IMG/VR virus record: IMGVR_UViG_3300045988_183361 | Length of the DNA: 64,000 nucleotides | Strand: one strand, 5' to 3' | DNA from: a virus | In this document: in pieces, positions 2,327-59,451 of the stretch | Layout: the number at the start of each line of letters is the position of its first letter | Numbering within the stretch: the first letter of the stretch is position 1 | Made by a program: the position numbers and the translations under genes | The notes under the pieces: model-generated | What the model was told of the DNA's origin: nothing | The model's database searches: none | What the model saw: only the letters and a program-made list of their open reading frames with translations

Positions 2327-3586
2327 TTAAATTACCAAGGTCTGTATCATTTCAGTTGACCTTGCCATTATGCGTTTACAATTACTCAATTTAGGTGTCT
2401 TGTATCCTTTTGGCATTGCCGAAAAATCAACCTTGTTACCATCTATATCCATGAGAACTGCATATCCAGTGGACATTCTACCCTTGATAAAATATTTGTT
2501 TCCAAAGTATCGAACTTTGTCAAATTTTCTAAAGCCACAAATCTTATCAGTGATAATAGGCTGTTCTGAACGAATCCCTTTTGTTTTTTGAAAATCACCA
2601 TCTGAAATGCATTTCTTTTTGTAAAGGTTGGATTTTACAGTAAATATATTGCCTTGTGTTGCAATCGTACAGGCATCATAATAATGTTCTTTGTCAATGC
2701 CAAGAAGCAAACGGTTAGCTTTTGTCACATATCCGAAGGTCTCAACTGCATCTGGATATAATTTAAAAAGCTGTTTACGAATAGAGTTCATCTGTGTGGC
2801 ATATTTAAGATTACCTTTAACTTTACCACTCAATTTGGGGTTAATTTTTCCACTATGTAAATCTTTATGACAGGTATGACACAGAGTAATTAGATTACTT
2901 TCTTCATCAGAACCCCCCTGACTACGAAATAAAATATGATGAACTTCTAACTTACTATCCTTATGTTTGCCTTTACAATATTGACAAGTATAATTATCTC
3001 GATTAAGAACCATCGCTTTGGTATTCTCAAACCCATAATTAATACCTTTCTGATAACCCCAATGTTTAATTTTAGGATTAGCAAGATTTGGATTTTTCAT
3101 AAGGTGAGTATCAAACTGACCTGTCTCAAATACCATTTCTGTAATCGGAAGAATAAATTTAATATATTTTATCTCTTTAACATGACTATGAAGCTTACTC
3201 TGCATCGTAGGGCTAAATCTATCATTCTTAATAGAATTAGCACGATTTAACCATCTTGCTTTTCTATAACGAGCTTTACGATTTCGTCTGTTTCTACGAT
3301 ACTTTGCTCTTTGTGTCATTTTGCCGGTAATGTCGTTTCTTATAACAACTTCCGACATATAGATAATATCTCCATTGTCTTTGCTTACAGAAGTGCCAAT
3401 AGTTCCGCTTCCGGTATCTACACCAAGAGTTAAGTCTTGAGTGTAATTTGTTGTTTCATAAGTCAATTTAATTGTAAATGGCTCACGTTTCTTAACTTTT
3501 GCTTTGCTTTGTTTAAGTAACAATCTTGCTATAGAGTTACTACAGGGCATTAGTGGTTTACCATCTTGTGAAATCACATAAACCAT
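2327..3586 (-). CDS. iscB: IscB RNA-guided nuclease (PLMP, RuvC-I, Arg-rich bridge helix, RuvC-II, HNH, RuvC-III)
   Basis: motifs read from translation: DGKPLMP; LGVDTGSGTIG; RAKYRRNRRNRKARYRKARW; FETGQFD; CQYC..HHI..N..LCHTCH; HYYDA; strong SD AAGGAGG. Confidence 0.85.
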   Translation of the reverse strand: MVYVISQDGKPLMPCSNSIARLLLKQSKAKVKKREPFTIKLTYETTNYTQDLTLGVDTGSGTIGTSVSKDNGDIIYMSEVVIRNDITGKMTQRAKYRRNRRNRKARYRKARWLNRANSIKNDRFSPTMQSKLHSHVKEIKYIKFILPITEMVFETGQFDTHLMKNPNLANPKIKHWGYQKGINYGFENTKAMVLNRDNYTCQYCKGKHKDSKLEVHHILFRSQGGSDEESNLITLCHTCHKDLHSGKINPKLSGKVKGNLKYATQMNSIRKQLFKLYPDAVETFGYVTKANRLLLGIDKEHYYDACTIATQGNIFTVKSNLYKKKCISDGDFQKTKGIRSEQPIITDKICGFRKFDKVRYFGNKYFIKGRMSTGYAVLMDIDGNKVDFSAMPKGYKTPKLSNCKRIMARSTEMIQTLVI

Positions 3587-3858
3587 AAATAAGTTCCTCC
3601 TTATAAATACTCTACTTAATAGTAGGTGATGCGTACTTTGTCGTACTGTTTACCATACGATTGTTCCGACTTCAACTCGACAATGATATAAAGGCTTTTA
3701 TGTACATATCACAAGGCTGTTCTTACTCTGACCTAACTTAAATATGTACGATAGAGCAACGGTCTGTTGCGTCAACCGAAGGTATCATAACCTAAATATC
3801 GTAGTATCCATTTCTGAATACTTAGTCTGGTGAACCATTTAACAGAAGCCCACTACCT
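3587..3858 (-). ncRNA. putative omega-RNA (guide-RNA scaffold) of the IscB element
   Basis: 272-nt non-coding stretch immediately 5' of iscB on the same strand, clearly GC-richer than its surroundings, multiple stable hairpins; matches the known IscB locus architecture. Confidence 0.5.
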
Positions 3859-4800
3859 TTAGGTGGTGGGTAGTTCACTTAATTCACCTGATTCTTTGTT
3901 AAATATAAATATATCTGAACTCAGATAATCTTCTTCTTCCTGAATACCAAATATCTTTAATGCCATTTGAATTTCTTCAGGAGTAAATTCATTGTATTTA
4001 CATATCAACAGAATATGTGCTGTAACAGGAACAATGTATAAATTTGTTTTCAGTTTCTCTGAAATATTCTTAAGCAAATTATTATTCAGAATTGCACTTG
4101 TGTTATAAAAGTCAATTATATTTTGAATTGCATATATTCCTTTAATACATTTGCTCTCAAACCCATCAGAATTACTTAGAGAAAATAATTCTTTCTTTGT
4201 TTTTTCATAATTATCATCATCTGCCAGTTGCGTCAAAAAATAATCACCTAATACACTGATAAAATATTTGTTGGAATATATTGAATGAATTGCAAGATTG
4301 TACAATTCGTTTTCATCAATTTTCAGTATGTCTCTCATATAGTTATTATCAATTACAAACATTGTACCTTCTGAATTTTCTTTAGGTATGATCACATTAT
4401 AAATTATTTCGAACTCATAAAATGGCCTATGAGGAATACCGCTTAAATCTTCCATATTGTCCGGCTTTTGTATTAATTGAGGTATAATATAGTGTTTTAT
4501 ATCATTTAAATTAATTTCTGGAGCTAAATTATTAAGTTTATATTCACTACCATTAGAATTTTTGTTTCTATAAAATGCTTCAGATATTGACAATGCAATT
4601 TCTTCTATTGACGAATTATTTAAATATTGTTTATATAATTGATTTAATTTAAATTCTAAGGGACACATAAACTGATTTTTAGAATGAAAAATAAGCTTAT
4701 CTGATGTGCAAACTATATCTGTTGGTGTAATATCTTCAATATTTTGAAGTAATTCGAATTTAAGATGTTTAAGAAAATCTTCGTAATTCATTTTTTGCAT
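3859..4800 (-). CDS. hypothetical protein
   Basis: ORF track; SD AAAGGAGAATTAATTAT; TGTCATAT box at 4837-4852. Confidence 0.6.
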   Translation of the reverse strand: MQKMNYEDFLKHLKFELLQNIEDITPTDIVCTSDKLIFHSKNQFMCPLEFKLNQLYKQYLNNSSIEEIALSISEAFYRNKNSNGSEYKLNNLAPEINLNDIKHYIIPQLIQKPDNMEDLSGIPHRPFYEFEIIYNVIIPKENSEGTMFVIDNNYMRDILKIDENELYNLAIHSIYSNKYFISVLGDYFLTQLADDDNYEKTKKELFSLSNSDGFESKCIKGIYAIQNIIDFYNTSAILNNNLLKNISEKLKTNLYIVPVTAHILLICKYNEFTPEEIQMALKIFGIQEEEDYLSSDIFIFNKESGELSELPTT

Positions 4801-6081: not shown

Positions 6082-7110
6082 TTACATAAAAGATTGTATA
6101 CTATATCCTTTCCGTCTGAAACGAACTCTAATCTTTTTTATTGCTTTTGATTCAATCTGTCTGATTCGTTCTCTGGATACATTCCATTCAGTACCTATAT
6201 CTTGTAAAGTTTTAACTTTTGAGCCATATCCCATTCTACCCTTAATTACATATAATTCTCTAGGAGTGAGACAATCTTCAACTTCTTTCCAAAGCAGTTC
6301 TTTCATTTCTTTTTGAATAATCGTATCTTCAACTTTAGGTTCAGGAGCTTCTATATAATCAGCCAAACATGAATCGTCATGGCCTTCATCACTTTGAATA
6401 GGTGCATCTAATGAAACCAATTCATTAAAACTCTGAATATGCACAAGCATTTCTTTAGTTAAAAGAGGATATCTTTGTTTTACTACATCATATAATTCAT
6501 CAATTGTAGGTTTTCTTTGAAGTTTATTAGTTAAATCCACAAATGTAGTCTTAACAAAAGAATCCTGTTCTCTTACATGTACAGGGAATCTAACTAATAA
6601 ATCATAATTGGCTAATTCTCTATATATACTCTGTCTAATCCAATGAGTTGCATAAGTTGAAAATGCATATCCTAATTTATAATCAAACATTTGTATAGCT
6701 CTGTATAACCCGAAAATACCGGCCTGACATAAATCATCCATTTCAAAACTTTGCGTTTTAGCTGTAACAGCTTTAGCAATACTGATGACTAAACGCATAT
6801 TAGATAAAATCAATTTTTCGGTTATTTCTTTTTTCTTTTTAGGATGTTTTTTTATCTCTTCAAATAATTTAAGAGTTTCATCTTTGGATAAAACCGGATA
6901 ATCAGCGAATGATTTAATATAATAAGTTATATTATTTTCTAATAATAGTTTCTCTTTTTCATTTAAAATCTCTTTATCATTTAAAATATCGGTATAATTA
7001 TCCTCTGATAAAATATTTATGTTTTCTATTGGTTTATTTGTATCAAATAATTCATCAATATATTCATCTTTATTGTTTTTTTTATTTAATAATAAATTCT
7101 TATCTGCCAT
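6082..7110 (-). CDS. sigma-70 family RNA polymerase sigma factor (regions 2 and 4 present)
   Basis: region 2-like YAFSTYATHWIRQSI; region 4.2 HTH LQDIGTEWNVSRERIRQIESKAIKKIR. Confidence 0.85.
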   Translation of the reverse strand: MADKNLLLNKKNNKDEYIDELFDTNKPIENINILSEDNYTDILNDKEILNEKEKLLLENNITYYIKSFADYPVLSKDETLKLFEEIKKHPKKKKEITEKLILSNMRLVISIAKAVTAKTQSFEMDDLCQAGIFGLYRAIQMFDYKLGYAFSTYATHWIRQSIYRELANYDLLVRFPVHVREQDSFVKTTFVDLTNKLQRKPTIDELYDVVKQRYPLLTKEMLVHIQSFNELVSLDAPIQSDEGHDDSCLADYIEAPEPKVEDTIIQKEMKELLWKEVEDCLTPRELYVIKGRMGYGSKVKTLQDIGTEWNVSRERIRQIESKAIKKIRVRFRRKGYSIQSFM

Positions 7111-7521: not shown

Positions 7522-8433
7522 TTATTGCTCCTTAATTTCTATATTGATATTTTCAAAACACTTAATTACAAAATAAATTAAACTCATTATGCAGACTATT
7601 AAAATGCATACCTGTAAATATATATTTGTTATAAAAAACGTAAATGGTATTAATGCCACACAGTTTATTAGAATATGATATAAGCTGCTAAGTTTAATAC
7701 CATATTTATCTCTTACAGCACCTAACAAATATCCGCCAAAAGCATATATAGGGAATAAAATAAAATTAAAATGAATTATTCCAAATAAAACTGCTTGGAT
7801 TATATTTGCACATAATTTATTGTTGCTTGCTTTATATGCATAGCCATAAATTATATATCTAAAAGTCAATTCCTCAATAATAGGTGCCACAAAAGTTGCT
7901 ATTATTGTAGATATAATTGTTTTTATTCCTAAACTTCCATAATCAATATCTGATACATTTACAAAATGCATTTGAATTCCTGAAATAAGCTGCAATATTA
8001 CAGAAATTAATATGAAACAAAATGCAAAATTCCAATTTACTACTAATTTATTTTTCATAAACAAATCTTTTTTATAATTGTAAAATGAGCTTTTTATACA
8101 AATAAGGCACATAACAAACATTAATGTATATGTTGATATTGTGTAAATTAATCGAAATCCTTCATAATCTATTTTAGTTGAAATTCCTCCTGCATCATTC
8201 ATATACATATTTAATAGACTGTCTATAAATGTTGCAATAAACATTGAAAATAAAATTATAAAAACAGAAATAATAAATGGAATAAAAATCTTTATATACT
8301 GTTTTGATTTTGAAAAGAAAGAATTACTTTTCATTTTGTTTTTCACCATAAAATCCATATAAGAATTTAAATCATGCTTATTTTTTTTATTTCTTAATTC
8401 CTTAATATTACTGTTATTGTTACTAAGTATCAT
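7522..8433 (-). CDS. CPBP-family (CAAX/Abi) intramembrane metalloprotease
   Basis: multi-TM; IIEELTFRYIIYGY (EExxxR) and FGIIHFNF (FxxxH) motifs. Confidence 0.7.
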   Translation of the reverse strand: MILSNNNSNIKELRNKKNKHDLNSYMDFMVKNKMKSNSFFSKSKQYIKIFIPFIISVFIILFSMFIATFIDSLLNMYMNDAGGISTKIDYEGFRLIYTISTYTLMFVMCLICIKSSFYNYKKDLFMKNKLVVNWNFAFCFILISVILQLISGIQMHFVNVSDIDYGSLGIKTIISTIIATFVAPIIEELTFRYIIYGYAYKASNNKLCANIIQAVLFGIIHFNFILFPIYAFGGYLLGAVRDKYGIKLSSLYHILINCVALIPFTFFITNIYLQVCILIVCIMSLIYFVIKCFENINIEIKEQ

Positions 8434-8545: not shown

Positions 8546-10231
8546 TTAGCATTTGCGTACTATTGAAGGTGCTGACATATCAGGGTTAATGAATTTCTTG
8601 CATAAATGTTCAATTCCGGTTGTTGAATCAAGCCAATATAAATAATCCCCGTCATTATCTACCAGATATTCATTAATAGAATCAAGAACATCGTTTACTT
8701 CGGAAACAGTACATATAAATCTGTATGAAGACTTATTTTTCTTTAAAGGTTTAACAGACTTAACAATAATCTGATATACAGTTTCGTCATCTGAAGATCT
8801 AAAATCATCTACTTGAATTTTTCCTGATAAACATAATTTAGCATCATTAACAAGTAAGTCTCTAATATTTGCATAATCTTTAGAAAAACATACACCATTA
8901 ATAGAACCTGTTTTATCTTCTACCTCAAAAGTTACCCATTCGTATCCATTTCTATCCTTTCTTACAACAAGATTTTTAATTATACCAGATACATCGTTAA
9001 CTTCTGTTGAAATATCAGAAATGGGATCTGTATAAATATTATACTCATCAATTGGATGCCCTGTAATATAAACACCTAACACTTCTTTTTCATCATTTAG
9101 AATCTGACCTAAATCATCTTCTACATAATCAATATCTATATTTTCAAGATCATCTTCTAAGCTTTCTATAACTGTCTTAGCTGAATTGATACGTTTAATT
9201 ATGGAATCCTTAGTTGGCATCTTTTTTGAAGTAACTTGAAAGGAAATATTTTCTTCTGAAATTCTTTCCTTAAACTCATCAAGATCAATATAATCTTCCA
9301 CAAATTCAATAACTTTACTTGCGTTTTCAATAAACTTACTCTTCTCTCTGATTTTCTTAATTGTATCCTGAATTTCTTTCATACAAATCATATCTAATGA
9401 TATCATTGTTCTTGTATAACCAAGGCAATCGAAAGCACCTGCTTTAATTAAGGAACTTAATGCTTCTGCATTAATATTTGTTCGTTTGATAAAATCCTTA
9501 ATATCAGAATATTCTCCATTAACATTTCTATCTTCAATAATTTTAGCTGCTTCTGATCCAACATTCTTAATATTACTCAGACCATACAAAATGTTCCCAT
9601 CTACAACATCACAATGTAAATTTGAAGCATTAATGTCCGGAGGCAATACCTTTACTCCAAAATCAAGGGCATCACTAATATCATCAGCGACTTCATCAAT
9701 CTTATCAGTATGATTTATTACATTTGTAAGATAATAAGCCGGATAATAATACTTAAGAAAAGCAGTCCAATATGATGTAACAGCATAAGCAGTAGCATGT
9801 GACTTATTAAACGCATACTTAGCAAAGTCAACCATCGCATCCCAGATTTTATGAGCAATTTCTTCTGATATTCCATTTGCAATACAACCTGGTACTAATG
9901 CTTCATTTTCTTTTTTAGTATCAGCATTACCATATACAAAAGTGTGTCTTTCAGCATCAATCTCATCCTGATGTTTTTTTGACATAGCTCTACGGACTAA
10001 ATCAGAACGCCCCCATGTATATCCTGCTAAATCACGAACAATCTGCATTACCTGTTCCTGATAAACTATCTGTCCATAAGTAGTTGACAAAATTGGCTCT
10101 AATTGAGGACATAAATATTTAATCTTAGATGCATCCTTTTTACCTTCTATGAAATCAGGTATAAACTTTTCAGGACCAGGACGATATAAAGCATTCATTG
10201 CTATTAAATCTTCAATACCTGTTTTATTCAT
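8546..10231 (-). CDS. dnaE: DNA polymerase III alpha (DnaE-type), C-terminal part as an independent gene
   Basis: NALYRPGP, YGQIVYQEQVMQIV, fingers/OB-like regions; own TGTCATAA box, SD AAAGGAGAAA and ATG. Confidence 0.85.
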   Translation of the reverse strand: MNKTGIEDLIAMNALYRPGPEKFIPDFIEGKKDASKIKYLCPQLEPILSTTYGQIVYQEQVMQIVRDLAGYTWGRSDLVRRAMSKKHQDEIDAERHTFVYGNADTKKENEALVPGCIANGISEEIAHKIWDAMVDFAKYAFNKSHATAYAVTSYWTAFLKYYYPAYYLTNVINHTDKIDEVADDISDALDFGVKVLPPDINASNLHCDVVDGNILYGLSNIKNVGSEAAKIIEDRNVNGEYSDIKDFIKRTNINAEALSSLIKAGAFDCLGYTRTMISLDMICMKEIQDTIKKIREKSKFIENASKVIEFVEDYIDLDEFKERISEENISFQVTSKKMPTKDSIIKRINSAKTVIESLEDDLENIDIDYVEDDLGQILNDEKEVLGVYITGHPIDEYNIYTDPISDISTEVNDVSGIIKNLVVRKDRNGYEWVTFEVEDKTGSINGVCFSKDYANIRDLLVNDAKLCLSGKIQVDDFRSSDDETVYQIIVKSVKPLKKNKSSYRFICTVSEVNDVLDSINEYLVDNDGDYLYWLDSTTGIEHLCKKFINPDMSAPSIVRKC

Positions 10232-10267
10232 TTTAAATTTCTCCTTTCAATTCATAACTATATAATT

Positions 10268-10283
10268 TATGACAGAAAATTAA
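10268..10283 (-). promoter_or_regulatory. TTTTCTGTCATAA box for the dnaE C-terminal gene
   Basis: terminator, box, SD, ATG 10231. Confidence 0.5.
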
Positions 10284-10307
10284 AAAAAGCGTCCAATTTT
10301 GGACGCT
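10282..10307 (-). terminator. intrinsic terminator after gene 10318..10623
   Basis: GCGTCCAAAATTGGACGC hairpin followed by a U7 run on the minus strand. Confidence 0.6.
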
Positions 10308-10317
10308 TGCATGAATA

Positions 10318-10623
10318 TTAAAAAGAATACTTGTTACATATATTTTCTTTTATATAAGTGATCAAATTTTTAGCATAATCTATTCTGTCTTTTAATTTAT
10401 CAATATCATTAATATCATATGAAACATTACCAGTAATACTAATATAAAAATCATCTTTTATGGTTTTAATTTCAATATCATAATATGGAATCTTTGGAGT
10501 AAAAAAGAATCTTATGACTTTACCTGTTCTTGAATCTCTTCTTAATAGAATTTTATATGTTTTATTATCGTATTCATCTATTATCCATGGACCGGATTCA
10601 TATGTTCTAATAAAAGTTACCAT
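10318..10623 (-). CDS. hypothetical protein
   Basis: ORF track. Confidence 0.5.
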   Translation of the reverse strand: MVTFIRTYESGPWIIDEYDNKTYKILLRRDSRTGKVIRFFFTPKIPYYDIEIKTIKDDFYISITGNVSYDINDIDKLKDRIDYAKNLITYIKENICNKYSF

Positions 10624-11204
10624 TATCTTACTTCTTCCTCTCTGTTATCTTTATTAATTTCAGTATGAATTACATCTGGCATAATTTTATCTTCATCATC
10701 TTCTCCGCCTAAATCTAAATCAATATCTGATAGTTCATTTGTGTCAATATTGTTTGTTATATTACTAATATTAACACTTTTACAATTTTGAGTCATTGCC
10801 TTTATAACATCATCTATAGTTTTAGCATCTCTACCGATTCCGTCAAGATAAAAAGCAGCCGTTATCTGGGCGCAAAAATCTGCGATTATATGTCTATCAG
10901 TTGTTTCAGGGCAAAACTTAGGAACATTATAATATTCACAATCTCTATTGATTTGGGAACACGCAGCTATTGCAGCTTCATGTTTAATTCTCCGATTTTT
11001 ATCCATAGACTGAATAGCTTCTCGTAATTCTTCTCCCTTAAGTGTAGCATATTTAATTGGAGTTGAATAGTTTTGATGATAAACAATCTGTACATATTCT
11101 CCAAATGCGGCCATATTGTAATTTAACATATCTAAATCATTCTCTCTATATTCATTATCTGGCGAATTTATTGCATTTACTAATTCCTTAAATTCTTTAA
11201 TCAT
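10623..11204 (-). CDS. hypothetical protein (acidic C-terminus)
   Basis: ORF track; TGTCAT box at 11244. Confidence 0.5.
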   Translation of the reverse strand: MIKEFKELVNAINSPDNEYRENDLDMLNYNMAAFGEYVQIVYHQNYSTPIKYATLKGEELREAIQSMDKNRRIKHEAAIAACSQINRDCEYYNVPKFCPETTDRHIIADFCAQITAAFYLDGIGRDAKTIDDVIKAMTQNCKSVNISNITNNIDTNELSDIDLDLGGEDDEDKIMPDVIHTEINKDNREEEVR

Positions 11205-11303
11205 ATTTTTTACTCTCCTTCCATTTATTGTTATAATAAATAAATGACAGAAAAATAAAATAACAAGTACCCATTAATAGGTACTTGTTATTAAGCATTT
11301 GTT

Positions 11304-11750
11304 TTAATTTGAATCACTCTTATCATGTACAAAATATAATTTTTGTATTAATTCAGATTTTCTTTTTTCATACTGAAATAAATCATTACATTCACATGAT
11401 AAAAAACTTGCAGCAGAATCAATCTGTTTTACAATTTCCTTTACTATACAATCAATGATTTCCTTTGGTGATTCCAATAGTTTAATTAGGCCTAAATGCT
11501 CCCCTTCATGAATTATGAAAGCTGTATCTGGTGTCAAAACTAGCGTTGCTGTAGAGCCTTCAGAATCAAAATAACAGGATGCCGTATTATTGTTATAATA
11601 ATTAATGCACATATCTAATAAGTCATTTGGGACATCAGTTAAATATGAAGCGTTCACTCTACAATTTGTCTTTTCGAATTTAATATTACACCAACCATTT
11701 GTTAAAATTTCAATTATCATGATTTTCTCCTTAAATATAATTATAAGCAA
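11304..11750 (-). CDS. hypothetical protein
   Basis: ORF track; overlaps FEN stop, so operonic. Confidence 0.5.
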   Translation of the reverse strand: MLIIIFKEKIMIIEILTNGWCNIKFEKTNCRVNASYLTDVPNDLLDMCINYYNNNTASCYFDSEGSTATLVLTPDTAFIIHEGEHLGLIKLLESPKEIIDCIVKEIVKQIDSAASFLSCECNDLFQYEKRKSELIQKLYFVHDKSDSN

Positions 11751-12622
11751 ACAATGTTGCCATTTTTAAGTATACTTATAATACTGTTAAGTTCATACAA
11801 ACCTAATATCTGCTCACTAATTTCATTTAACATATTATCTGATACATTAGCGTTATAAGCATCAAGTTCTACATCTGTTTTTATTGTTGCTAAAATTTTT
11901 GACAACAAAATATTATCTTCACTATTTATTAAACAAGTTGAAATACTTTTTCCTTTAGACATATTAGATTCAATATCTGAAATATTCATATATATGTTAA
12001 ACAAATTTCCATACTTATGTATTAGTTTACTTGCAGTTTTAGGACCAATACCTGCAGCTCCAGGAATATTATCCGATTTATCTCCCATTAATGTTTTTAC
12101 ATCAATAAACTGTTTAGGAGTAACGAAATACTCATTCATAATTTCTACCGGAGTCCAAATATCTTCCGGGTTGTTTGGAACAACTAATGATACTAAATCA
12201 TTACATAATTGTAACAAATCATGATCTGCAGATATAATATTAACCTTATTTCCGGCTTTACTTTCAATAGTTGAAATTGTTCCTATAATATCATCTGCTT
12301 CATATCCTTCTTTTTCAATAACACATATATTCATTGTTTTAAGAATAGGAACAATAGCCTGTCTCTGAATCTTAAATTCTTCCGGTGCAGGATCTCTAGT
12401 TGCCTTATACCCGTTATACATTAAATGCCTGAAAGTTGGCTTTGCAGTATCAAACGCAACAATTAATTCATCAGGACTATACTTTTCTTTCATATATAGA
12501 ATTGTATTTAAAGCTCCTTTAATTGCATTAGTCGGAAATCCCTTTGAGGTTTTTAATTCTGGAACACCATAAAAAGATCTTCTGAGAATGTAATTCCCAT
12601 CAAAAATCATAATATTTTTCAT
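11741..12622 (-). CDS. FEN / 5'-3' exonuclease (Pol I N-terminal domain-like)
   Basis: VAFDTAKPTFRHLMYNGYKATR, EADDIIGT; start moved to ATG 12620-12622 (SD AAAGGAGAAAAATTA) because the TGTCATAA box at 12655 lies inside the longer ORF-track reading. Confidence 0.8.
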   Translation of the reverse strand: MKNIMIFDGNYILRRSFYGVPELKTSKGFPTNAIKGALNTILYMKEKYSPDELIVAFDTAKPTFRHLMYNGYKATRDPAPEEFKIQRQAIVPILKTMNICVIEKEGYEADDIIGTISTIESKAGNKVNIISADHDLLQLCNDLVSLVVPNNPEDIWTPVEIMNEYFVTPKQFIDVKTLMGDKSDNIPGAAGIGPKTASKLIHKYGNLFNIYMNISDIESNMSKGKSISTCLINSEDNILLSKILATIKTDVELDAYNANVSDNMLNEISEQILGLYELNSIISILKNGNIVCL

Positions 12623-12654
12623 TAATTTTTCTCCTTTATAATTTTTAATATATT

Positions 12655-12669
12655 TATGACAGAAAAAAA
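12655..12669 (-). promoter_or_regulatory. TTTTTTTCTGTCATAA box for the FEN gene
   Basis: preceded by GCGGGAGACUUAUGUUUCCUGC hairpin (G-U pairs) + U7. Confidence 0.5.
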
Positions 12670-12730
12670 GCAGGAAACATAAGTCTCCCGCTTTCAAAAA
12701 ATCTTATTTAGTTATGAAAAATCAAAATAT

Positions 12731-12988
12731 TCAATTTCTTTCACTTAAGAATTTTTCCACAGCATCTTCAACAGCTTCATATTCAGTAAGACCGTTACCT
12801 TCTGCGTAAGTATCATAAGCTGCTTCACCAATATCAATATAATCATTCTCAGTAATATCAGAATGATATTGAGACTGAATAATCTCTTTAGCTGTATTAA
12901 TCATCCATGTTGAAACAAATTCCTTATGAGCAGCATAAATTTCGTCATATGTTAATTTTATTTCCTTACCATTTCTTATTATTGTCAT
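12731..12988 (-). CDS. hypothetical protein
   Basis: ORF track; SD AAAGGAGAATAAGAC. Confidence 0.5.
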   Translation of the reverse strand: MTIIRNGKEIKLTYDEIYAAHKEFVSTWMINTAKEIIQSQYHSDITENDYIDIGEAAYDTYAEGNGLTEYEAVEDAVEKFLSERN

Positions 12989-13069
12989 GTCTTATTCTCC
13001 TTTAGTTGTTATTATTTTCATCAGAATTATCATATATGACACTTTCAATTATATTAATTGCTGTATTTG

Positions 13070-13126
13070 CATGAACTACTCACAACCGACTATTGTCGGA
13101 TGGAGTTTTCTTACAATTCTTCGATA
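13070..13126 (+). repeat. dispersed 57-nt hairpin repeat, copy 1
   Basis: ATGAACTACTCACAACCGACTATTGTCGGATGGAGTTTTCTTACAATTCTTCGATAA. Confidence 0.8.
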
Positions 13127-13158
13127 ATATTTAAAGTTTTCATAAAATTCCTTTCTTT

Positions 13159-13617
13159 TTACAATGTACTTTTTATAACCTTAACAGGTTCTAATCTGCC
13201 GTTTATAAATGAAGCAGTTCCTAATGTTTTATCAGTATTTTTAGAAGATTCAAAGAAATCATTTGCCATATCCTCATTTGAAAAATATGAATATTCTCCT
13301 GAATTGTCTCCGCAATCTGACTCATATCCTATCCAAACATAATAAAATGAAAATCTTTCAAGGTTATCACTGTCGTCAGGGATTGCTCCGTTCCAATCAT
13401 CATTTTCTTTTATATCTTCTTCTAATTCATATTTAAACTCGCTCATCATATTAGGATCGTCTAAATATACACATTTATGGTAATTATCAACTGCAATTGC
13501 GCATTTCTGTCCTAATGGATGCAGTAAATAATTCTTAGGCACTTCCAATAATGCTCCTATCATATCATTTACTGTTTCTAAGTTATTTTCCTTAATTTCA
13601 AATGCATTAGTTTTCAT
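13159..13617 (-). CDS. hypothetical protein
   Basis: ORF track; box at 13654. Confidence 0.5.
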   Translation of the reverse strand: MKTNAFEIKENNLETVNDMIGALLEVPKNYLLHPLGQKCAIAVDNYHKCVYLDDPNMMSEFKYELEEDIKENDDWNGAIPDDSDNLERFSFYYVWIGYESDCGDNSGEYSYFSNEDMANDFFESSKNTDKTLGTASFINGRLEPVKVIKSTL

Positions 13618-13701
13618 AATTTTATTCTCCTTTTTAAATTTTATAATAATACAATGACAGAAAAATAAAAAAACTGGCTACTAATAGTAACCAGTTTAAT
13701 T

Positions 13702-14691
13702 TTATAACTTTACAATTTTCTCATTAACTTCCATTCTAAATGTATTGATTTTGTCTATATCCGGCTCATCTGGCAATACAGAGTTTTTACATGCATTTTC
13801 AAACTTATTCTTGTATTCATCTACTATTTCAAAGAAATGTTTATTAGGGATTCCATTTTCATCAAGATATACACCATTTCTAATATCCATCAACAAATCA
13901 TGTTCTTTAATTCTTTTCGTTTGAATTTTCCCTTCAGAAACTAAATCAATTCCCATCATATACAATCTAAGTAAATGCATACTATGTTTTGCTATTTTAC
14001 CATGATTTAATGCATGTTCATTCCTTTTACTTGTTTTCCGGTAATCTCTTAAAGTGTTATTAAATTCTGAAAGCATTCCTGACAAATCTTCCATTGAACA
14101 CTGTGTTGCAATAATATTGCATTTGATTTTGCCGTCAACCAAATAAAAAGACACATTATTTTCATCTAAATTGTACTTATCGTTCATTTTCTTGGACATA
14201 TTATTAAGCACTCCAGAAATGTGTCTATTTAATTCTTCTTCCGTTAAAGCAGCGTTGGTCTTCTGCTGCATACGGTATAACTGTTGTAATGCATATTCAC
14301 TAAATGTATTAATACATCTATTCGATAAAAAAATATCTTTATTTTTTAATAAAAGCTCCCCAAATTCATTTTTATAAATATAATCATCTGTATCTAATCC
14401 TAAAAGTTCAATAGTGTTTGGATTGCATTTAGCTAATAAATCAATAATTTTGTCAAAACTATAAATAGTTGTATCTGTATTAACATCTACAAAATTTTCA
14501 AAATCATTACCTAACAAGATATCTTCTTTTCTTCTAACAGCAACTCCTCTTATATCAATATCGCTTTCTGGAAGATTTGTCCCATATGCTCTGCTACCAC
14601 CTAATCCAAGTATACAAATATTCTTATCTAAATTTTGATTTTCCTTTAAAAATGAATACTCAGGCATATTTAATATATTTTTATTTATCAT
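13702..14691 (-). CDS. nucleotidyltransferase-fold protein (PF10127/COG3541-like)
   Basis: ILGLGGSRAYGTNLPESDIDIRGV matches the GS-x5-G-x6-SDxD motif of pol-beta-superfamily NTases. Confidence 0.6.
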   Translation of the reverse strand: MINKNILNMPEYSFLKENQNLDKNICILGLGGSRAYGTNLPESDIDIRGVAVRRKEDILLGNDFENFVDVNTDTTIYSFDKIIDLLAKCNPNTIELLGLDTDDYIYKNEFGELLLKNKDIFLSNRCINTFSEYALQQLYRMQQKTNAALTEEELNRHISGVLNNMSKKMNDKYNLDENNVSFYLVDGKIKCNIIATQCSMEDLSGMLSEFNNTLRDYRKTSKRNEHALNHGKIAKHSMHLLRLYMMGIDLVSEGKIQTKRIKEHDLLMDIRNGVYLDENGIPNKHFFEIVDEYKNKFENACKNSVLPDEPDIDKINTFRMEVNEKIVKL

Positions 14692-14713
14692 ATTCTCTTC
14701 CCTATCCTTGTAA

Positions 14714-14769
14714 TTAAACTACCCACAACCGGCTATTGTCGGTTGGGGTTTTTTGCTTAATTGCGATAA
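14714..14769 (+). repeat. dispersed hairpin repeat, copy 2 (diverged, with compensatory stem changes)
   Basis: TTAAACTACCCACAACCGGCTATTGTCGGTTGGGGTTTTTTGCTTAATTGCGATAA. Confidence 0.7.
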
Positions 14770-14779
14770 TATCATTCTT

Positions 14780-15412
14780 TTATTTTCTAACAATAGCAGA
14801 AAAATCTACTGACTGTAAAATCTTAATGATATCTTCTACTTCAGGACTTCTCCATGCAGTCATAGCATAGGTATGAGCGTACTCATCGTAATGATAATGA
14901 TTTGCCTTTAGATGTTCAGCGGCTGCCTTTTCTGTTAAAAACATTGTGTTTTCATAAATTTTATCTCTATATGCATAACAGGTGAAAGTATATCTGCCAT
15001 AATTATGCTCATTCAACCAAGTCTTTAAATCATCAAGATCAGCTAAACATTCCTCATAATCATTATCTTCTTTTGATGTAACATAATATCCATCATATTC
15101 TTTTGAAATAACCCAAGAATCACCGTTTTCTTCAAATTCCTTATTAAAAAATACAATTGCATCATCAATATTATCAGCAACTTCTTCGACTGCCTCATTA
15201 TCTATTAATGTTACACCGTCTTCATATCCTTCTGGAACAATACACTTTTCTTTCCCCATAATAACCCAAAATCGAGGATCAGCTTGTCCTACATGGTCCT
15301 GTGTATTTAATTCATGCTGCAAATCAGACAAAAATTTGATTTCTTTATCTGTAATTTTATGTTTCTCTACTGTGTCTGGATGGTATTGTAAATGTTCATG
15401 AAATATTGCCAT
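14780..15412 (-). CDS. hypothetical protein
   Basis: ORF track. Confidence 0.5.
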   Translation of the reverse strand: MAIFHEHLQYHPDTVEKHKITDKEIKFLSDLQHELNTQDHVGQADPRFWVIMGKEKCIVPEGYEDGVTLIDNEAVEEVADNIDDAIVFFNKEFEENGDSWVISKEYDGYYVTSKEDNDYEECLADLDDLKTWLNEHNYGRYTFTCYAYRDKIYENTMFLTEKAAAEHLKANHYHYDEYAHTYAMTAWRSPEVEDIIKILQSVDFSAIVRK

Positions 15413-15439
15413 ATTTTTCTCCTTAAACTTTATTTATTT

Positions 15440-15676
15440 TTATTCAGTATAGTATTGGAATGCACAATCATACATTTGTTTCCCAGTTATCTGATCTGTG
15501 AATATAGGGCAATGCCAATCCTTATTAAATCCTGTTTCCTTACACCATTCATTAATAACTCTAGTAGTAATTGGTGTGACAAATACATATAAATCTGATT
15601 CATGGTGAAACATATCTTTTTCAGAATATCCAACCTCAATGAATCGTTGCATAAGAGTTTTATTATTTTTCTCCAT
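15440..15676 (-). CDS. hypothetical protein
   Basis: ORF track; box at 15715. Confidence 0.45.
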   Translation of the reverse strand: MEKNNKTLMQRFIEVGYSEKDMFHHESDLYVFVTPITTRVINEWCKETGFNKDWHCPIFTDQITGKQMYDCAFQYYTE

Positions 15677-15780
15677 AATATTGTTCTCCTTTATTTATTA
15701 TAATTTAAAAGAAATATGACAGAAAAAACGCACATCATAATGACATGCGTTTTAATACAAAATATTCAATTAACTATTCA

Positions 15781-16539
15781 CTATGAGCATAACTTCTTAA
15801 GGTTATTTCTCATACCGGCTGACTCAAACTGGAAAACATTCTTAGTTCTTCCTTTTGCATATACTTCTTTGTATACCTTATCAGCTTTAGGACCCTCTAA
15901 TGGAATATTCATTACATCAATTACTTCTCCTGTATCTCTCTGAATCATTCTGAGTGTGTCAGTAATAATTGTAAGAGTTTTTAATCCAAGAAAATCCATT
16001 TTTAATAATCCATTAGCTTCGCACTGAATCATGTCCATTTCTGTAGTTTTAATTCCCTTTTTTCCATCTCTAATAGGAATATAATCAGTAACATCATTAC
16101 TATCATAAATAATAACACCTGCGGCATGTTGTGCGTATGTCGTAAGCATACCTTCACAATGAGCTGCAATATTAAGAATAGAAATAGCATCTGGATTACT
16201 ATTATATTCATCCTTTAAGAAATCTAACAAAGAAATGCTGTCCTGAATATTAATGCCTAATTCATCAACCTTATTAGTATCTTTCATGCCAACAATATCT
16301 TCAAAATTAGTTGCTTTAGCAGGCACTTTCTTACGAATCTGATCTCCTAAAGATAAGAATTTCTTTTCATCATCATAAGCTTTCTTTCCATAATATCTTG
16401 CAGCATCTCTGATAGCACCTTTAGCCTGCTGTCTTGATTCTGTAATAATTCCAACAACAGCTTCACTACCATATTTAGCTCTTACATACTCAATTGTCTT
16501 TTCTCTTACTCCAAGAGCAAGATCACTATCGATATCCAA
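15781..16539 (-). CDS. dnaE: DnaE-type Pol III alpha, middle segment (exon 2 / palm-thumb)
   Basis: begins DIDSDLA (the PDxD DID.DF catalytic motif), ends FQFESAGMRNNLKKL; followed by its own terminator. Confidence 0.8.
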   Translation of the reverse strand: MDIDSDLALGVREKTIEYVRAKYGSEAVVGIITESRQQAKGAIRDAARYYGKKAYDDEKKFLSLGDQIRKKVPAKATNFEDIVGMKDTNKVDELGINIQDSISLLDFLKDEYNSNPDAISILNIAAHCEGMLTTYAQHAAGVIIYDSNDVTDYIPIRDGKKGIKTTEMDMIQCEANGLLKMDFLGLKTLTIITDTLRMIQRDTGEVIDVMNIPLEGPKADKVYKEVYAKGRTKNVFQFESAGMRNNLKKLCS

Positions 16540-17477
16540 ATATACCCCTACTTTCGTAGTACTTTAACACTTGTATAAGTGGGATTAGACTATATCTCAA
16601 TATAATATTGTTAATATTATATTTCAACGCACTTCCAACTGTAACCATTCTCAGTTGTACTCCTTAAAAAGGATAGTCGTTACACTTTAAAATAAATAAT
16701 ATTATATACGAACAATTTTTAAGTCATTCCATTTTAAATATTTATGCATTGAGGAATAACTTGCGTTATATTTTTCTTTAGCATATCGAGCTGCTGCTAA
16801 TATGCTTTCAAATCTATCAATTAATATATCTCCTTTATATAATTTACAACACTTATAATTTCTTACAGGAGACATAGTTTTATAACTATCATATAAATTG
16901 TCTTTTCTAGTACACCATTCTAAATTATTCACCTTACAATTTTGTTTATTTTTGTCTTTATGATTAACTTCTGGTAGATTATAAGGATTAGGAATAAAAT
17001 TCATCGCAACTAATCGATGCAATAAAAATTTTTTATTATCTAATCTTATCATCCTGTAATTCTTTTTACTATCTAAAAAAGGTTTAAGTTGTCGAATTTT
17101 CCCTTGTTTTATACTAAAAATCTTTCCATATGAAGTTATGTAATATTCGTGGTGATTTTTAATTTCTACTATTTTTTCACCTTTTTCAAGGAATGATGTA
17201 AAATTGATATAATCTATCATAAATATACACCTCCTTATTTATATAATATTATTTATAATCTTAGCACGGTATCGCCTGCTATCCTTCAATATCTTTTATA
17301 TAAAAATACGAGGACCGTAGGTTCTCTTACGAAGCTGCTTCGTCTATGGGTTAAGCTATATATCCTGTTGTGACACTTTATATAGCAGTCTTATTCAACT
17401 TCTACCGTTAGCACTTAATAATAAAATATTAAGCACACCTCTGAGTTAGAGTCCACGCTGAACGCCCAATATATTTA
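16540..17477 (-). ncRNA. group I intron interrupting dnaE, with HNH homing-endonuclease ORF
   Basis: about 940 nt inserted exactly between ..ERVSMP and DIDSD.. of the DnaE active site; GC-richer structured flanks at 17221-17477 and 16540-16701 around an internal ORF with its own SD. Confidence 0.6.
16702..17220 (-). CDS. HNH homing endonuclease (intron-encoded)
   Basis: NHKDKNKQNCKVNNLEWCTRKDN HNH-type motif; SD AAGGAGGTG; sits inside the intron. Confidence 0.8.
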   Translation of the reverse strand: MIDYINFTSFLEKGEKIVEIKNHHEYYITSYGKIFSIKQGKIRQLKPFLDSKKNYRMIRLDNKKFLLHRLVAMNFIPNPYNLPEVNHKDKNKQNCKVNNLEWCTRKDNLYDSYKTMSPVRNYKCCKLYKGDILIDRFESILAAARYAKEKYNASYSSMHKYLKWNDLKIVRI

Positions 17478-19270
17478 GGCATACTTACTCTTTCTGGATT
17501 TAAGAATCGTTCAAAAATCAGATTATACTTAAATGGATCAATTCCGGTAATACCAAGTAAATATGTAACCAATGAACCGGCACCTGAACCTCTTCCAATG
17601 CCTATTCCAATTCCGGTATTATAATTGTGAGTCTTAACATACTCTTTTGCACCTTCAATTGTTAAAGGTACTTCTGATAGTTTATCCATAGGCACTAATC
17701 CACAAATTCTTCCATATTCCAGAAAGTCCTTTACAATTAAATGATAATCGGCAAAGCCCATCTGAATGATAATATTAAGTTCGTATTCCATTCGTTTCTG
17801 ATGTTCTTCATCCCATCCTTTTCCGTTAGGATATCTCCAATTAATTCCCTTAATTGCTTCAGATCTTAATAATTCGTTTGAGTCCTTGTTCTTATCAAAT
17901 ACTGGATAATGATTAGATTTTTCTGGAATATAAGCACATCTTTTTCCAATTACATTTAAGTTATTGAGTGCTTCTGCAACCTGATCATCTGTTAATATAG
18001 CTGATAAGGCCTGAGCAAGTTCGTAAGGTGTTTTTACATATAACTCTTTATCTGATTCCGACTCACTTATCTTAATAAATCTTAAAAATTTAGCTACATT
18101 ACGCATATCAATACTTCTATCAGAATTATCTGCCATATGTGCATCATTAGCAGCAACTAATGGGATATTATGCTTCCTTGCTAACTGAGCTAACACAGGA
18201 TATGTTCTGCTTTCCATTTCAAGCCCATGATTCTGAACTTCAATGTAATAATTACCTGCTCCAAAAATTTCCTGATAAAAAAGCATTGTCTTTTCTGCTT
18301 CAGACATTAATTCTATTGGGCTTTTCTTTAATGATTCATAATGCTGTATCTTATTTTCATGATTAATATATTCCTCTACTTTAAGACTTATATCCTTTAA
18401 CTCGGCTTTCTTAGCATTAACTAATTTTCTGACATTAGGAATTTTATCTTTAGCTTCCAGAATTTTATTATTTATCTCCTCATATTCGTTAATCAGTTTA
18501 ATAAGCTCTGGATCATCATCATTTAAACACTTTCTTGCATCTCTTAATTTTCTTGAAATCTGTGTTCTTTCTGATTTAAGTTCCTTGGAATCACGAATAT
18601 TAATCAATTCATCTAAATCTGCCGATACCCTTTCAAATTCATCTTTAGCTGAAAGATATTCTTTATCATCAGGACTTATACAATCACGTATAACTAGCTC
18701 GTCTTTTTCAGTAGTATGCTGCTGTGCTTTTCTTTCTCTGTTAATCATTTTATCCAAAACATCATCTGATAATAATTGCAGAGCTGGTGCACCCGAAACG
18801 CAAGCAGAAGTTGCTATTATATCACCGTTAAAGTTATATTTCTTTAAATCTGATATTGTAATAACAGGCTTTCCCATTCTTTTTTCAGAAGCCTTAGAAT
18901 TTAACTTATCAATAATATGCTTGCCTCTTTCTGAAGTGGCTAACATAATCATATGGCCAATCTGCTCATTTATCTTAAATGGTGGCACTTCAATATAAGC
19001 CTCTACGCCATAAATGATATTAAAAGGATGTTCCTCAGTACTTATTTTCTTAGCGTAATCAATACATGTTTGCATTGCTGAAAATGATGCATGGTCCGTA
19101 ACAGCAAATTTAGTATATCCTGCATTAAATGCAGCATCTAAATAACTTTTAGGTTCATCTACGGCATCAAACAAAGAGCCTCCTGGATGGTTATGTTCAC
19201 ACACTGTAACTCCTGACTCAATAACCTTTTTTGTTAATTCTCCAATTTTTACATGTTCAAACATTGACAT
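17429..19270 (-). CDS. dnaE: DnaE-type Pol III alpha, N-terminal PHP + palm segment (exon 1; coding part probably ends near 17478, remainder is intron read-through)
   Basis: PHP motifs [20 protein letters not shown]; palm [34 protein letters not shown]. Confidence 0.85.
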
Positions 19271-19304: not shown

Positions 19305-19318
19305 CATGACAGAAAAAA
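19305..19318 (-). promoter_or_regulatory. TTTTTTCTGTCATG box for the dnaE N-terminal gene
   Basis: 35 nt upstream of ATG 19270. Confidence 0.45.
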
Positions 19319-19381
19319 TACACCAGTTGACTAATCTCAACTGGTGTATAAATACACATTATTTAATTGTTAATTATTTTA

Positions 19382-20533
19382 TTATTCTACCTTAACAACG
19401 TCTCCTCTATCTGATGTTTCAGTAATAACAATATACTTGATTTCCATATTGTCGTTTGCAAGAGCAATTCTTGTTACATTATCTTCCTTACTTGTATCGA
19501 CAATCCAATCATATCCTTCAACTGCAGACATTATCTTTGAATCAGTAATGATTTTATCAACATACTCTCCAATCATAATTCTGTCTTCAAGTCTGATAAA
19601 ATCAGCACTATTCCAACCAATTGAAACAGATTTAATATGTGAAGGGATATTAATACTATTGAGCCTCATTAATGTACCACCATTAAGAGCAATCATTTCT
19701 GCTTTAATATGATCCATTTCGATTAATTCCTTAGTATTAGTAATTGTATCTAAATGATAATCACAATTATTGCATTCATCATAATCTCCACAATCATTTT
19801 CGCAGTCATAACCACAATCACAATCAGGATTATAATAATTATTATCACATACCTGCTCTGTATATTCAATGACCCATGTAGGTACATTCATTGAATTTCT
19901 TACAGTAATGACATTATTTATTGGTGCATCAAGCATTAAATAACTTGAAATATAATTCTTTGCACCATCATAAACGATAATTTCAGCATTATCAAAATAT
20001 TCAGCGAAAATATCTTTTCCATTAAAATCCTTCTTTGTTTCAAAGTGTGTATAGGAAGTCTTTAGTATCACATATTTGTCACATACACCTATAACTTCCG
20101 GCATTGGAATTGAAACTGGAATAAGTTTCTTAAACTTATCCTCATCCGGCTTATAAGCAAATAAATCAATATAATCATCATGTTCTGTTGTGTTTTCTCT
20201 AGGTAATACAGATAATAAAAGCTTACCTGGAACAGATGTAACGATACTCTTAATTACCAGTGAACCCTGCTGTGTAGCAGCAACACCATCCTTAAGTAAA
20301 ATTCCGTCTTCTACTGAATATCCATCTGGAATATCTGGAATATTAGGATTGCTGATAAGTCTAAAAGCAATTGCGTTAGATGATGATATCATAACAGATA
20401 TATCCTCGTTTACTTCACCATTTTCTAAAAGACAAGCCGTTCCTACGCCATCGGTAACAGATGTAATTAAATACTGTCTGTTGTCAACCTTGTTTAATAC
20501 TGTTACATTTTCTAAAATTTTGTTTTCTCTCAT
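19382..20533 (-). CDS. hypothetical protein, paralog of 20666..21715, with Cys/Asp-rich insert
   Basis: shared NVTVLNKVD, SLVI.SI...V.G.L.LSV.PRE and IT/SETxDRGD C-terminus; CDNNYYNPDCDCGYDCENDCGDYDECNNCDYH insert. Confidence 0.55.
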   Translation of the reverse strand: MRENKILENVTVLNKVDNRQYLITSVTDGVGTACLLENGEVNEDISVMISSSNAIAFRLISNPNIPDIPDGYSVEDGILLKDGVAATQQGSLVIKSIVTSVPGKLLLSVLPRENTTEHDDYIDLFAYKPDEDKFKKLIPVSIPMPEVIGVCDKYVILKTSYTHFETKKDFNGKDIFAEYFDNAEIIVYDGAKNYISSYLMLDAPINNVITVRNSMNVPTWVIEYTEQVCDNNYYNPDCDCGYDCENDCGDYDECNNCDYHLDTITNTKELIEMDHIKAEMIALNGGTLMRLNSINIPSHIKSVSIGWNSADFIRLEDRIMIGEYVDKIITDSKIMSAVEGYDWIVDTSKEDNVTRIALANDNMEIKYIVITETSDRGDVVKVE

Positions 20534-20665: not shown

Positions 20666-21715
20666 TTACTCTATGGTTATAATGTCTCCTCTATCTCTTG
20701 TTTCAGAAATAACAAGAGTCTTTATCTCCATAGTATTTGTATTAGCAAGAGAAATTCTTGTAACATGATCCTTAGATGTAATATCCACAATTACATTATA
20801 ACCTGCAAGCTCAGCAACTATCTTATCTGGGATCTTATATGTGATATCATTAATATACCACTTGCCTGAAGAAGCTTTAATCAGGCTTGCATTATATCCC
20901 TTTGAAATTGATTCTGGAACACTGTCAATTGCTGTTGTCTTATAAAGACTTAATGAATGACCTTCAGAAGCAACAAATCTTAATGTAATATAATCATCTT
21001 CCTTGATAACTCCGTCAGAATCGACTACTGTATCTGCTTCAATTGCGAAAATTGTTTCATTAGGTGCCTTAACAGAATCTACAGCCTTAATTGGCTCCGC
21101 AAAAGAAACATGATCAACAACTGCATCAGACATTACATCATATAACATGATTGCTGCAGCATCAAAGATATTATCTGTTTCAATAGTTCCATCTTCAAGC
21201 TTCTTATCCTTAGTATAAGTTCTTGAATATGTCATATATAACTGCATCTTATTCTCAGAAGAAGCAATGATTGTAACTTCTGGAATAGATCTTCTGATAA
21301 GCTTATTAAACTTATCTGACTCAACTGTATATGACATAATATCGAAATAACCTTCTCTTGGTTCTCTTGGTTCGACAGATAAAATAAGTCTTCCTGCAAC
21401 ACCTGCAATAATACTATTAATTACAAGTGAACCCTGTTCTGTAGCAGGGACTCCATTCTTAAGCAAAATTCCGTTTTTTACAGTATATCCAGTTGGAACA
21501 TCTGGAATATTAGGATCATCAATCAGCTTGTAAGCTATTGCATTATTAGCTGTAATTACTGCAGTAACCGAATCATCAAGTGAACCATCCTCCTTGATTA
21601 ACTTGGCTGTTCCTTTAATGGAATCACCTGAACCATCAACATTAATTACCTGGTAATTCTTACGGTCTACCTTGTTTAATACTGTTACATTAGTCTTAAT
21701 CTTGTTTATTCTCAT
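20666..21715 (-). CDS. hypothetical protein, paralog of 19382..20533
   Basis: as above. Confidence 0.55.
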   Translation of the reverse strand: MRINKIKTNVTVLNKVDRKNYQVINVDGSGDSIKGTAKLIKEDGSLDDSVTAVITANNAIAYKLIDDPNIPDVPTGYTVKNGILLKNGVPATEQGSLVINSIIAGVAGRLILSVEPREPREGYFDIMSYTVESDKFNKLIRRSIPEVTIIASSENKMQLYMTYSRTYTKDKKLEDGTIETDNIFDAAAIMLYDVMSDAVVDHVSFAEPIKAVDSVKAPNETIFAIEADTVVDSDGVIKEDDYITLRFVASEGHSLSLYKTTAIDSVPESISKGYNASLIKASSGKWYINDITYKIPDKIVAELAGYNVIVDITSKDHVTRISLANTNTMEIKTLVISETRDRGDIITIE

Positions 21716-59439: not shown

Positions 59440-59451
59440 AAAATTTCCTCC

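Follow-up and report, generated by a model that had tools for sequence, protein, structure and literature searches.

A DnaE-type polymerase encoded in two parts by a gut phage or plasmid-like element: a probable two-subunit replicase

DnaE is encoded by two genes 5.5 kb apart

We analyzed a 64,000-nucleotide (nt) stretch of IMG/VR virus record IMGVR_UViG_3300045988_183361, hereafter the window, in which the alpha subunit of a C-family DNA polymerase III (Pol III alpha, DnaE) is encoded by two genes on the minus strand. The upstream gene, which we call the N-part, consists of two exons. Exon 1 (17477..19270, 598 codons) encodes the PHP domain (PF02811, E = 8.7e-19, Pfam) and the opening part of the Pol-beta-like palm (PF07733 through profile position 102); its open reading frame (ORF, 19270..17429) carries 15 unrelated residues at the 3' end, past the polymerase homology, and we fixed the end of the exon with the intron-less homologue P0121 (849 amino acids (aa), 99% identical) and locus L014. 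Exon 2 (15781..16536, within ORF 16539..15781) picks up at PF07733 position 103 with DIDSD and supplies the rest of the palm (PF07733 103-260), the thumb and the first ~60 residues of the fingers (PF17657 1-59), aligning with residues 463-682 of Thermus aquaticus (Taq) DnaE. The catalytic motifs DIDSD and LLKMDFLGL correspond to Taq 463-467 and 613-621, and the palm with its three catalytic aspartates is complete across the interruption between the exons. The exon 2 ORF terminates in ..NVFQFESAGMRNNLKKLCS, and the N-part protein ends ..FQFESAGMRNNLKKL (GMRNNLKKL context), followed by CS and a stop at 15781. The second gene, the C-part (8546..10231, 561 aa), starts at 10231 with M-NKTGIEDLIAMNALYRPGP, its ORF (10231..8546) opening MNKTGIEDLIAMNALYRPGP, and encodes the rest of the fingers, the helix-hairpin-helix (HhH) domain, the OB fold and a C-terminal tail (PF17657 63-162, PF14579, PF01336), aligning with Taq DnaE from residue 683 onward. 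The original prediction, made from the sequence, had placed dnaE in two pieces at 15781 and 10231 with nine ORFs between them, and the ORFs, the Pfam matches and the count all agree with this.

The full DnaE domain set (PHP, palm, fingers, HhH, OB) is thus present and is spread over two polypeptides, the first closed by the stop at 15781 and the second opened by the start at 10231. The break between them is precise. A single Pfam domain, PF17657 (DNA_pol3_finger), is divided so that its positions 1-59 lie at the end of the N-part and positions 63-162 at the start of the C-part, with coding ends of ..AAGAAGTTA on the N side and AATAAAACAGGT on the C side of the 5.5-kb break. When joined in silico the two halves align with Taq DnaE at E = 3e-91 and without a gap at the junction, which falls at L682|K683 of the Taq enzyme and at ~L623|Q624 of Escherichia coli Pol III alpha, bearing out the earlier claim that no polymerase sequence is missing. 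The division had been described as N-PHP-palm on one side and fingers-OB on the other; two parts there are, but the cut lies ~60 residues inside the fingers domain, away from the palm/fingers border. The domain limits of the E. coli and Taq enzymes used for placing it are those reported in the 2006 structure papers. All of the palm (DIDSD, KMDFLG) accordingly stays in the N-subunit, along with the PHP domain, the thumb and three helices of the fingers, and the C-subunit holds the fingers motifs YRPGP, YQEQVM, RRAMSKK and FAKYAFNKSHA, the HhH domain and the OB fold.

Each half carries its own expression signals

The N-part and C-part genes each have their own terminator, TCTGTCATA promoter-like box, Shine-Dalgarno (SD) sequence and ATG. 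A terminator scan placed a terminator-like hairpin with a 13-bp stem and T-run (19318..19349, minus strand) 5' of the N-part gene, and a motif search placed the box TTCTGTCATG (19305..19314, minus strand) 35 nt upstream of its ATG. Just 3' of the N-part stop, sequence and fold show a further terminator-like hairpin with T-run (15723..15753, minus strand), as had been predicted for the end of this fragment. Upstream of the C-part, all on the minus strand, we found a terminator hairpin (10287..10308), the box TTCTGTCATA (10268..10277), which stands 37 nt before the ATG and is of the same class as that of the N-part, and the SD sequence AAAGGAG (10241..10247), so that the box, SD and ATG ascribed to the C-part at the outset are all in place. 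The sharing of one promoter class suggests that the two genes are probably co-regulated.

The box, of the form [T-run]TCTGTCATAT, has 29 coding-strand copies in the window. Each stands ~25-35 nt 5' of an SD and start codon, in many cases immediately behind a terminator. With up to one mismatch allowed there are 53 occurrences where 9.4 would be expected, so that the box is no chance match. The arrangement at the C-part gene recurs as well: a T(G/T)TCATA box and SD precede it in every relative inspected (L007, L010, L012, L011, L001 and L003), usually after a terminator hairpin, and the 125-nt spacer of L012 is included in this.

Minus-strand examples of the box lie at 59246, 42631, 31020, 21766, 20581, 12664 and 4846. 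In one subset (8472, 4846, 24867, 32917 and 47900, more loosely at 56572) the box starts ATCTGTCATA, with TTTTATGTAAA ~20-30 nt upstream, and this subset may represent a second promoter class. The element also encodes a sigma-70-type factor at 6082-7110.

The upstream interruption is a probable group I intron

The N-part gene is itself interrupted at the catalytic PDIDxD motif by 940 nt (16537..17476, minus strand), which contain a 172-aa ORF (16702..17220, minus strand) for an HNH_3/NUMOD4 homing endonuclease (PF13392, E = 1e-8; the NUMOD4 match, PF07463 at E = 4.6e-4, falls under its curated cutoff with 20.8 vs 23.4 bits). The insert is polymorphic, being present in the window and in L013 and absent from the 99%-identical P0121 and L014, whose intron-less alleles read ..ERVSMP|DIDSD.. 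at the exon junction. A U precedes the 5' splice site, the last intron base is G, a P1 pairing of AUGCCU with GGGCGU can be read in the sequence, and a GAAA-capped hairpin lies near the 3' end; with the ORF deleted, the core folds into more structure than shuffled controls (z = -2.8). The Rfam group I covariance model (Intron_gpI) gave no match to this interruption even on a 1-kb window at E <= 10, which may be due to the 519-nt ORF inside the intron and which leaves the class assignment at probable. Judged by these features, the upstream interruption is probably a group I intron that carries the gene for an HNH homing endonuclease, and its presence or absence among 99%-identical genomes would be consistent with an actively homing enzyme. 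With this break read as an intron, the products of the two genes are an N-subunit of 849 aa and a C-subunit of 561 aa.

The intervening block holds neither intein nor intron features

Between the two halves, and outside the polymerase, lies a block of nine minus-strand ORFs (10318..15676; ORF list, Pfam, PHROGs): ORFs of 78 aa and 210 aa (phrog_3205), a 329-aa RlaP-type nucleotidyltransferase (13702-14691), ORFs of 152 aa and 85 aa, a 5'-3' exonuclease/FEN (11741-12697), and ORFs of 148, 193 and 101 aa. The first gene of the block has its own copy of the TTCTGTCATA box (15715..15724, minus strand; motif search). The nine genes had been called unrelated to the polymerase; the number holds, but FEN is a replication gene and so is not really unrelated. 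The listed start of this FEN ORF is a TTG inside a terminator hairpin (12695..12666, in the ORF end region 12625-12697, minus strand), and a box at 12664..12655 with its SD indicates that the real start is probably the ATG of MKNIMIFDG.., ~24 codons downstream.

DnaE is a classic host of split inteins, the same gene has an intron at its other break, and a Cys follows the N-part homology (..KKL-CS-stop) while Ser or Thr is common just before IED in the C-part heads. All of this would fit two halves that are joined into one chain after transcription or translation, whether by a split intein, by trans-splicing or a giant cis-splicing intron, or by ribosomal bypassing. The ends at the break, however, leave no space for intein blocks. 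An N-intein fragment, of at least ~25-120 aa and starting with Cys or Ser, is not present, as the N-part tail consists of CS and a stop in the window and of 2-4 aa before the stop in relatives; nor is a C-intein fragment of ~35 aa ending in His-Asn, the head of the C-part being M(N) in the window and unconserved in relatives, where the shortest heads have 3 aa (MSI-SIEDII). Neither piece has a Pfam match to an intein or Hint domain. Among 240 retrieved homologues none has an intein or other insertion at the break, and the intein site of the sole intein-bearing DnaE, P0201 (TYG|CVYQEQ), lies elsewhere in the protein, as does the cyanobacterial site FAEY/CFNKSH. Rfam returned no intron family, either at the gathering threshold over the whole window or at E <= 10 on the 11-kb region, the upstream intron and the spacer after the N-part, and short windows at the two borders, also scanned at E <= 10, gave no group I or group II intron match. 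What fills the 104-nt and 86-nt spacers is a terminator hairpin, the TTCTGTCATA box, an AAGGAG-type SD and the ATG, and one relative has its halves 18.4 kb apart with opposite-strand genes between them. We consider joining into a single chain highly improbable; with a conserved break, tails and heads too short for an intein and no intron RNA, the prediction of two independently expressed polypeptides that are neither intron- nor intein-joined stands.

Removal of the block at the DNA level, as for a skin-type element, was considered and rejected: the nine ORFs yielded no identifiable recombinase, inspection by eye showed no repeat spanning the coding ends (a dedicated repeat search was not part of this), and in relatives the halves are separated by 18 kb of genes for replication and partition. 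Pfam and PHROGs likewise gave no HNH, GIY-YIG or LAGLIDADG match among the nine ORFs that would point to a homing endonuclease between the halves.

The break is conserved while the distance between the halves varies

Stand-alone C-parts form ~28 protein clusters (558-658 aa, 44-99% identity) that start 2-84 residues before the IEDxIAMNALYRPGP helix, and split N-parts form at least 17 clusters, the window's own and 16 retrieved (808-893 aa), all of which end 2-4 residues past ..GM+xxLKxL. What lies between the halves differs from relative to relative. In L012 they are 125 nt apart, with no genes between them and a spacer that holds no ORF; in L010 the distance is 3.9 kb, filled by AAA_5 and CobT_C-like genes; in L007, which is 73% identical, it is 4.0 kb, and only the 85-aa ORF and FEN are held in common with the block of the window; and in ERZ28573836 scaffold_109 it reaches 18.4 kb, with MCM-like, HNH, UvrD, PARP, AAA, ParA and Rep3 genes on both strands. 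The 5.5-kb spacing with its nine ORFs is that of the window, L013 and L014, in the last two of which the block is wholly identical, so that these 99%-identical genomes provide no block-less allele of the break. In some relatives the genes for the two halves are unlinked, with the C-part beside Rep3/ParA.

The same layout is found in independent assemblies of different projects, namely L013 and L014 (two IMG/VR uncultivated virus genomes) and ENA, Logan and NCBI metagenome-assembled genome contigs, and two of the protein clusters comprise 203 and 251 sequences. Mis-assembly had been named as one way in which the split might prove spurious. An artefact of assembly or of sequencing has in its favor only the general possibility that attaches to metagenomic contigs, and is in our estimation a negligible explanation.

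A stop codon and 5.5 kb of foreign genes within an essential domain do resemble a disruption, and NCBI labels the C piece merely an OB-fold nucleic acid binding domain-containing protein, so it could be argued that the gene is broken, that one or both pieces are relics and that the element relies on the host's or another polymerase. Against this, every lineage between 99% and ~44% identity has both ORFs intact, with DIDSD, KMDFLG, YRPGP, YQEQVM, RRAMSKK and FAKYAFNKSHA all kept, and both halves are retained in each of the five lineages with enough contig sequence. Compared with L007, dN/dS (the ratio of nonsynonymous to synonymous substitution rates, NG86) comes to ~0.08 in the N-part and ~0.14 in the C-part at saturated dS, and as judged from these sequences both halves are under purifying selection. 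A broken gene is therefore very unlikely. The more specific scenario of a recent insertion with a degenerate, decaying C piece is excluded by the conservation of the break across many lineages, the parallel divergence of the halves, dN/dS of ~0.1 for both and the existence of fused outgroups.

Uninterrupted dnaE genes, which the earlier analysis had proposed seeking in relatives, were found in more distant ones (P0139, P0145, P0147 and others; L015/L016) that fall outside the split clade in a neighbour-joining tree computed with our own script. Within related proteins there is also a second, apparently independent fission site ~45 residues downstream, between ..IPEYIEG and LDxILGxTYG (L011 at 9780-10100, P0032-P0035, P0141 and P0143), where the two genes are adjacent and separated by an 89-nt spacer that consists of terminator, TTCTTTCATA and SD. 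One fused DnaE of 1403 aa, P0127 (L009, 10001-14212), is nested in the split clade (bootstrap 74 with the split P0129 by neighbour-joining), and its junction linker LKELLHDGKGSIEDII is 3 aa longer than the canonical one; this is compatible with a secondary re-fusion, a reading that we offer tentatively. Among deposited phages, megablast found no match to the 11-kb region, and tblastn of the C-part gave no more than 40% identity, so that no cultured relative is available. The split had been called rare; within its own clade it is common, and the literature searched contained no description of it.

Two side observations concern the surroundings of the C-part. A gene for an Rce1-like/CPBP membrane protease (7522-8433, minus strand) is its constant downstream neighbor in the window, L007 and L012, and by precomputed Pfam annotation also adjoins it in L001, whatever the upstream content. 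A protein 99% identical to the C-part, P0001, bears the NCBI name 'OB-fold nucleic acid binding domain-containing protein [Lachnospira pectinoschiza]' and is not recognized there as half of DnaE.

The halves probably form a two-subunit polymerase

To place the cut in a fold, we used an AlphaFold2 model of a virtual fusion of the middle piece and the C-part. With an 80-sequence alignment the model reached a mean predicted local distance difference test score (pLDDT) of 91 and a predicted template modelling score of 0.82; a single-sequence run was uninformative (pLDDT 33), and the 80-sequence run was used instead. In this model, helices 241-250 and 255-265 are joined by a turn of four residues, NKTG (251-254), and the cut falls there. 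We observed no conserved extension that could serve as a dimerization handle at the cut end of either half, in the N-part tails or the C-part heads of relatives, suggesting that association would rely on native packing within the domain.

The two proteins might alternatively have separate jobs and form no joint polymerase, for example if the N-part were a PHP nuclease whose polymerase is crippled and the C-part a stand-alone factor that binds DNA or the clamp. The unlinked genes of some relatives, where the C-part adjoins Rep3/ParA, would suit this, as would the very variable length of the C-part heads (2 to 84 aa). Yet the three fingers helices of the N-part would be exposed without a partner, the residues that flank the cut are conserved on both sides as in fused DnaE, and both genes of the window have the same promoter class. 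The halves moreover co-occur and diverge at matched rates, with identities that fall in step from lineage to lineage (73/63%, 56/50% and 45/41%). We consider separate functions unlikely.

Instead, we think it probable that DnaE is made, by gene fission, as two proteins that form a two-subunit polymerase. An 849-aa N-subunit would be produced after removal of the polymorphic intron, a 561-aa C-subunit would supply what remains of the fingers together with the HhH domain and OB fold, and the two would re-associate non-covalently through native fingers packing into a heterodimeric polymerase. Several points weigh against this proposal. Association of the halves and polymerase activity are matters that we infer, and the AlphaFold model represents only a virtual single chain and hence carries no interface score. 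With the larger share of the fingers cut away from the catalytic palm, a tight interface within the domain is needed. Another polymerase elsewhere in the element could make DnaE dispensable. Finally, the neighbour-joining tree is crude and its deep support weak, so that a single origin of the split and its direction, fission or fusion, are not firmly established.

Relation to known split polymerases

Phage polymerases in split form have been described before, as has DnaE split by an intein. The literature searched contained no full-length DnaE that is split without an intein; it did yield the different case of a minimal split Pol III alpha as well as split PolB and PolA. A similar gene arrangement is that of cyanobacterial dnaE-n and dnaE-c (Ssp, Npu), where, as in the window, DnaE comes from two distant genes whose products must unite. 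The cyanobacterial halves, however, carry N- and C-intein fragments and are ligated by protein trans-splicing, whereas those of the window have no intein residues and would presumably unite non-covalently. Cyanobacterial DnaE is split at the FAEY/CFNKSH motif, and the site in the window lies ~150 residues upstream of it. In the 'genes in pieces' of T4-like phages (Aeh1 nrdA/mobE; split gene 43), an essential enzyme is reportedly split by a free-standing homing endonuclease and still yields a functional two-protein complex; the window differs in that no homing endonuclease is present among the block ORFs, and the minimal spacer, that of L012, is a 125-nt terminator-promoter-SD cassette.

A precedent for the assembly of split phage replicases is provided by PhiKZ, whose family-B polymerase comes from two distant genes as DNAP-N (gp82) and DNAP-C (gp50), is split within a domain and forms a stable 1:1 complex without ligation (PMC13648687). 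The two cases differ in polymerase family (B in PhiKZ, C in the window) and in the site of the split, which in PhiKZ lies in the palm insertion domain; the PhiKZ complex is proven biochemically and structurally, whereas that of the window is a prediction. In group 2.2 jumbo phages a minimal Pol III alpha is predicted to be formed by two distantly encoded proteins (Iyer et al. 2021, PMC7824862). That module comprises the palm only, without PHP, fingers, HhH or OB, has its cut where the NTP-binding subdomain meets the Mg/DNA-binding one and occurs alongside a PolB (PMC7824862), whereas the window encodes the full DnaE architecture, with an intact palm and a cut within the fingers. For family B, one report describes a Pfu DNA polymerase that remains active after an engineered termination-reinitiation split in the fingers (PMC3061061); as described there that split is artificial and sits at the finger tip of a family-B enzyme, whereas the present one is natural and in family C. 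A survey of Pol III alpha in cellular genomes treats DnaE as a single chain, with the cyanobacterial exception repaired by protein splicing (PMC3919608).

If the two-subunit polymerase is confirmed, the C-family replicase would be shown to tolerate assembly from two subunits, and enzymologists would gain a natural split site of use, for instance, in split-polymerase tools or subunit exchange. It would also carry a warning for annotation, as the 561-aa 'OB-fold nucleic acid binding protein' of one public record would be half of a replicase. It opens no long-standing question, and phages are already known to have split replicases of other families.

A possible origin by cassette insertion

The preservation of a minimal spacer in L012, together with a second fission that has the same kind of spacer, suggests that a regulatory cassette was inserted into surface loops of the protein-coding sequence. 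Such an origin is inferred, as are physical assembly and catalytic activity. Fission would most likely have occurred when a short terminator-promoter-SD cassette inserted into the turn in the fingers, a minimal state that L012 (stop, terminator, box, SD and ATG within 125 nt) may still keep. Gene cassettes would later have been inserted or exchanged between the halves, giving the spacings of 4, 5.5 and 18 kb, and the flanking cassettes may have served as recombination points for such gene shuffling. Promoter/stem-loop cassettes that resemble these are said to occur in T4-type phages.

We put forward only tentatively a wider version of this proposal, in which a whole clade of large gut elements, viral or plasmid-like, depends for its replication on an obligate, intein-free two-subunit C-family polymerase and the element's own mobile terminator-promoter-SD cassette has caused fission at least twice at neighboring loops, possibly reversed once, in P0127. 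Were it correct, regulatory cassettes would drive the fission and fusion of genes in these genomes as well as the shuffling of cassettes, and short regulatory cassettes may more generally fragment and reshuffle essential genes in large mobile elements.

Context of the element

The element is listed as viral in IMG/VR, where it is found on 95-103 kb contigs, and a 157-kb contig is binned with Lachnospira pectinoschiza. The 64-kb window contains no virion genes and is rich in genes for replication, repair and signalling, and relatives carry ParA and Rep3; the element may be either a gut phage or plasmid-like. Part of its cargo, in 53977-60738 and in 31203-32777 (minus strand), is unusual for a viral contig and includes a class A penicillin-binding protein (transglycosylase and transpeptidase), a GGDEF cyclase, an HD-GYP-type HD_5 protein, a PARP-like protein and a flotillin/SPFH protein.

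Just upstream of dnaE are two paralogous minus-strand ORFs (19382-20533 and 20666-21715; 383 and 349 aa, ~37% identical), neither of which has a Pfam or PHROGs match; one copy is kept at the same place in L007. An ORF of 449 aa at 21965-23314 (plus strand), opposite in orientation to nearly everything else, looked TnpB-like by eye, but has no Pfam match to back this. A TnpB-like ORF is found at 62487-63782 (minus strand), with OrfB_IS605 and Cas12f TNB domains. At the other end of the window, in 2327-3878 (minus strand), a 419-aa IscB-like ORF with RRXRR and HNH domains and a PLMP start lies directly downstream of a HEARO/omega-type RNA (RF02033, 3665-3878, 109.8 bits), which is the only real Rfam match in the window.

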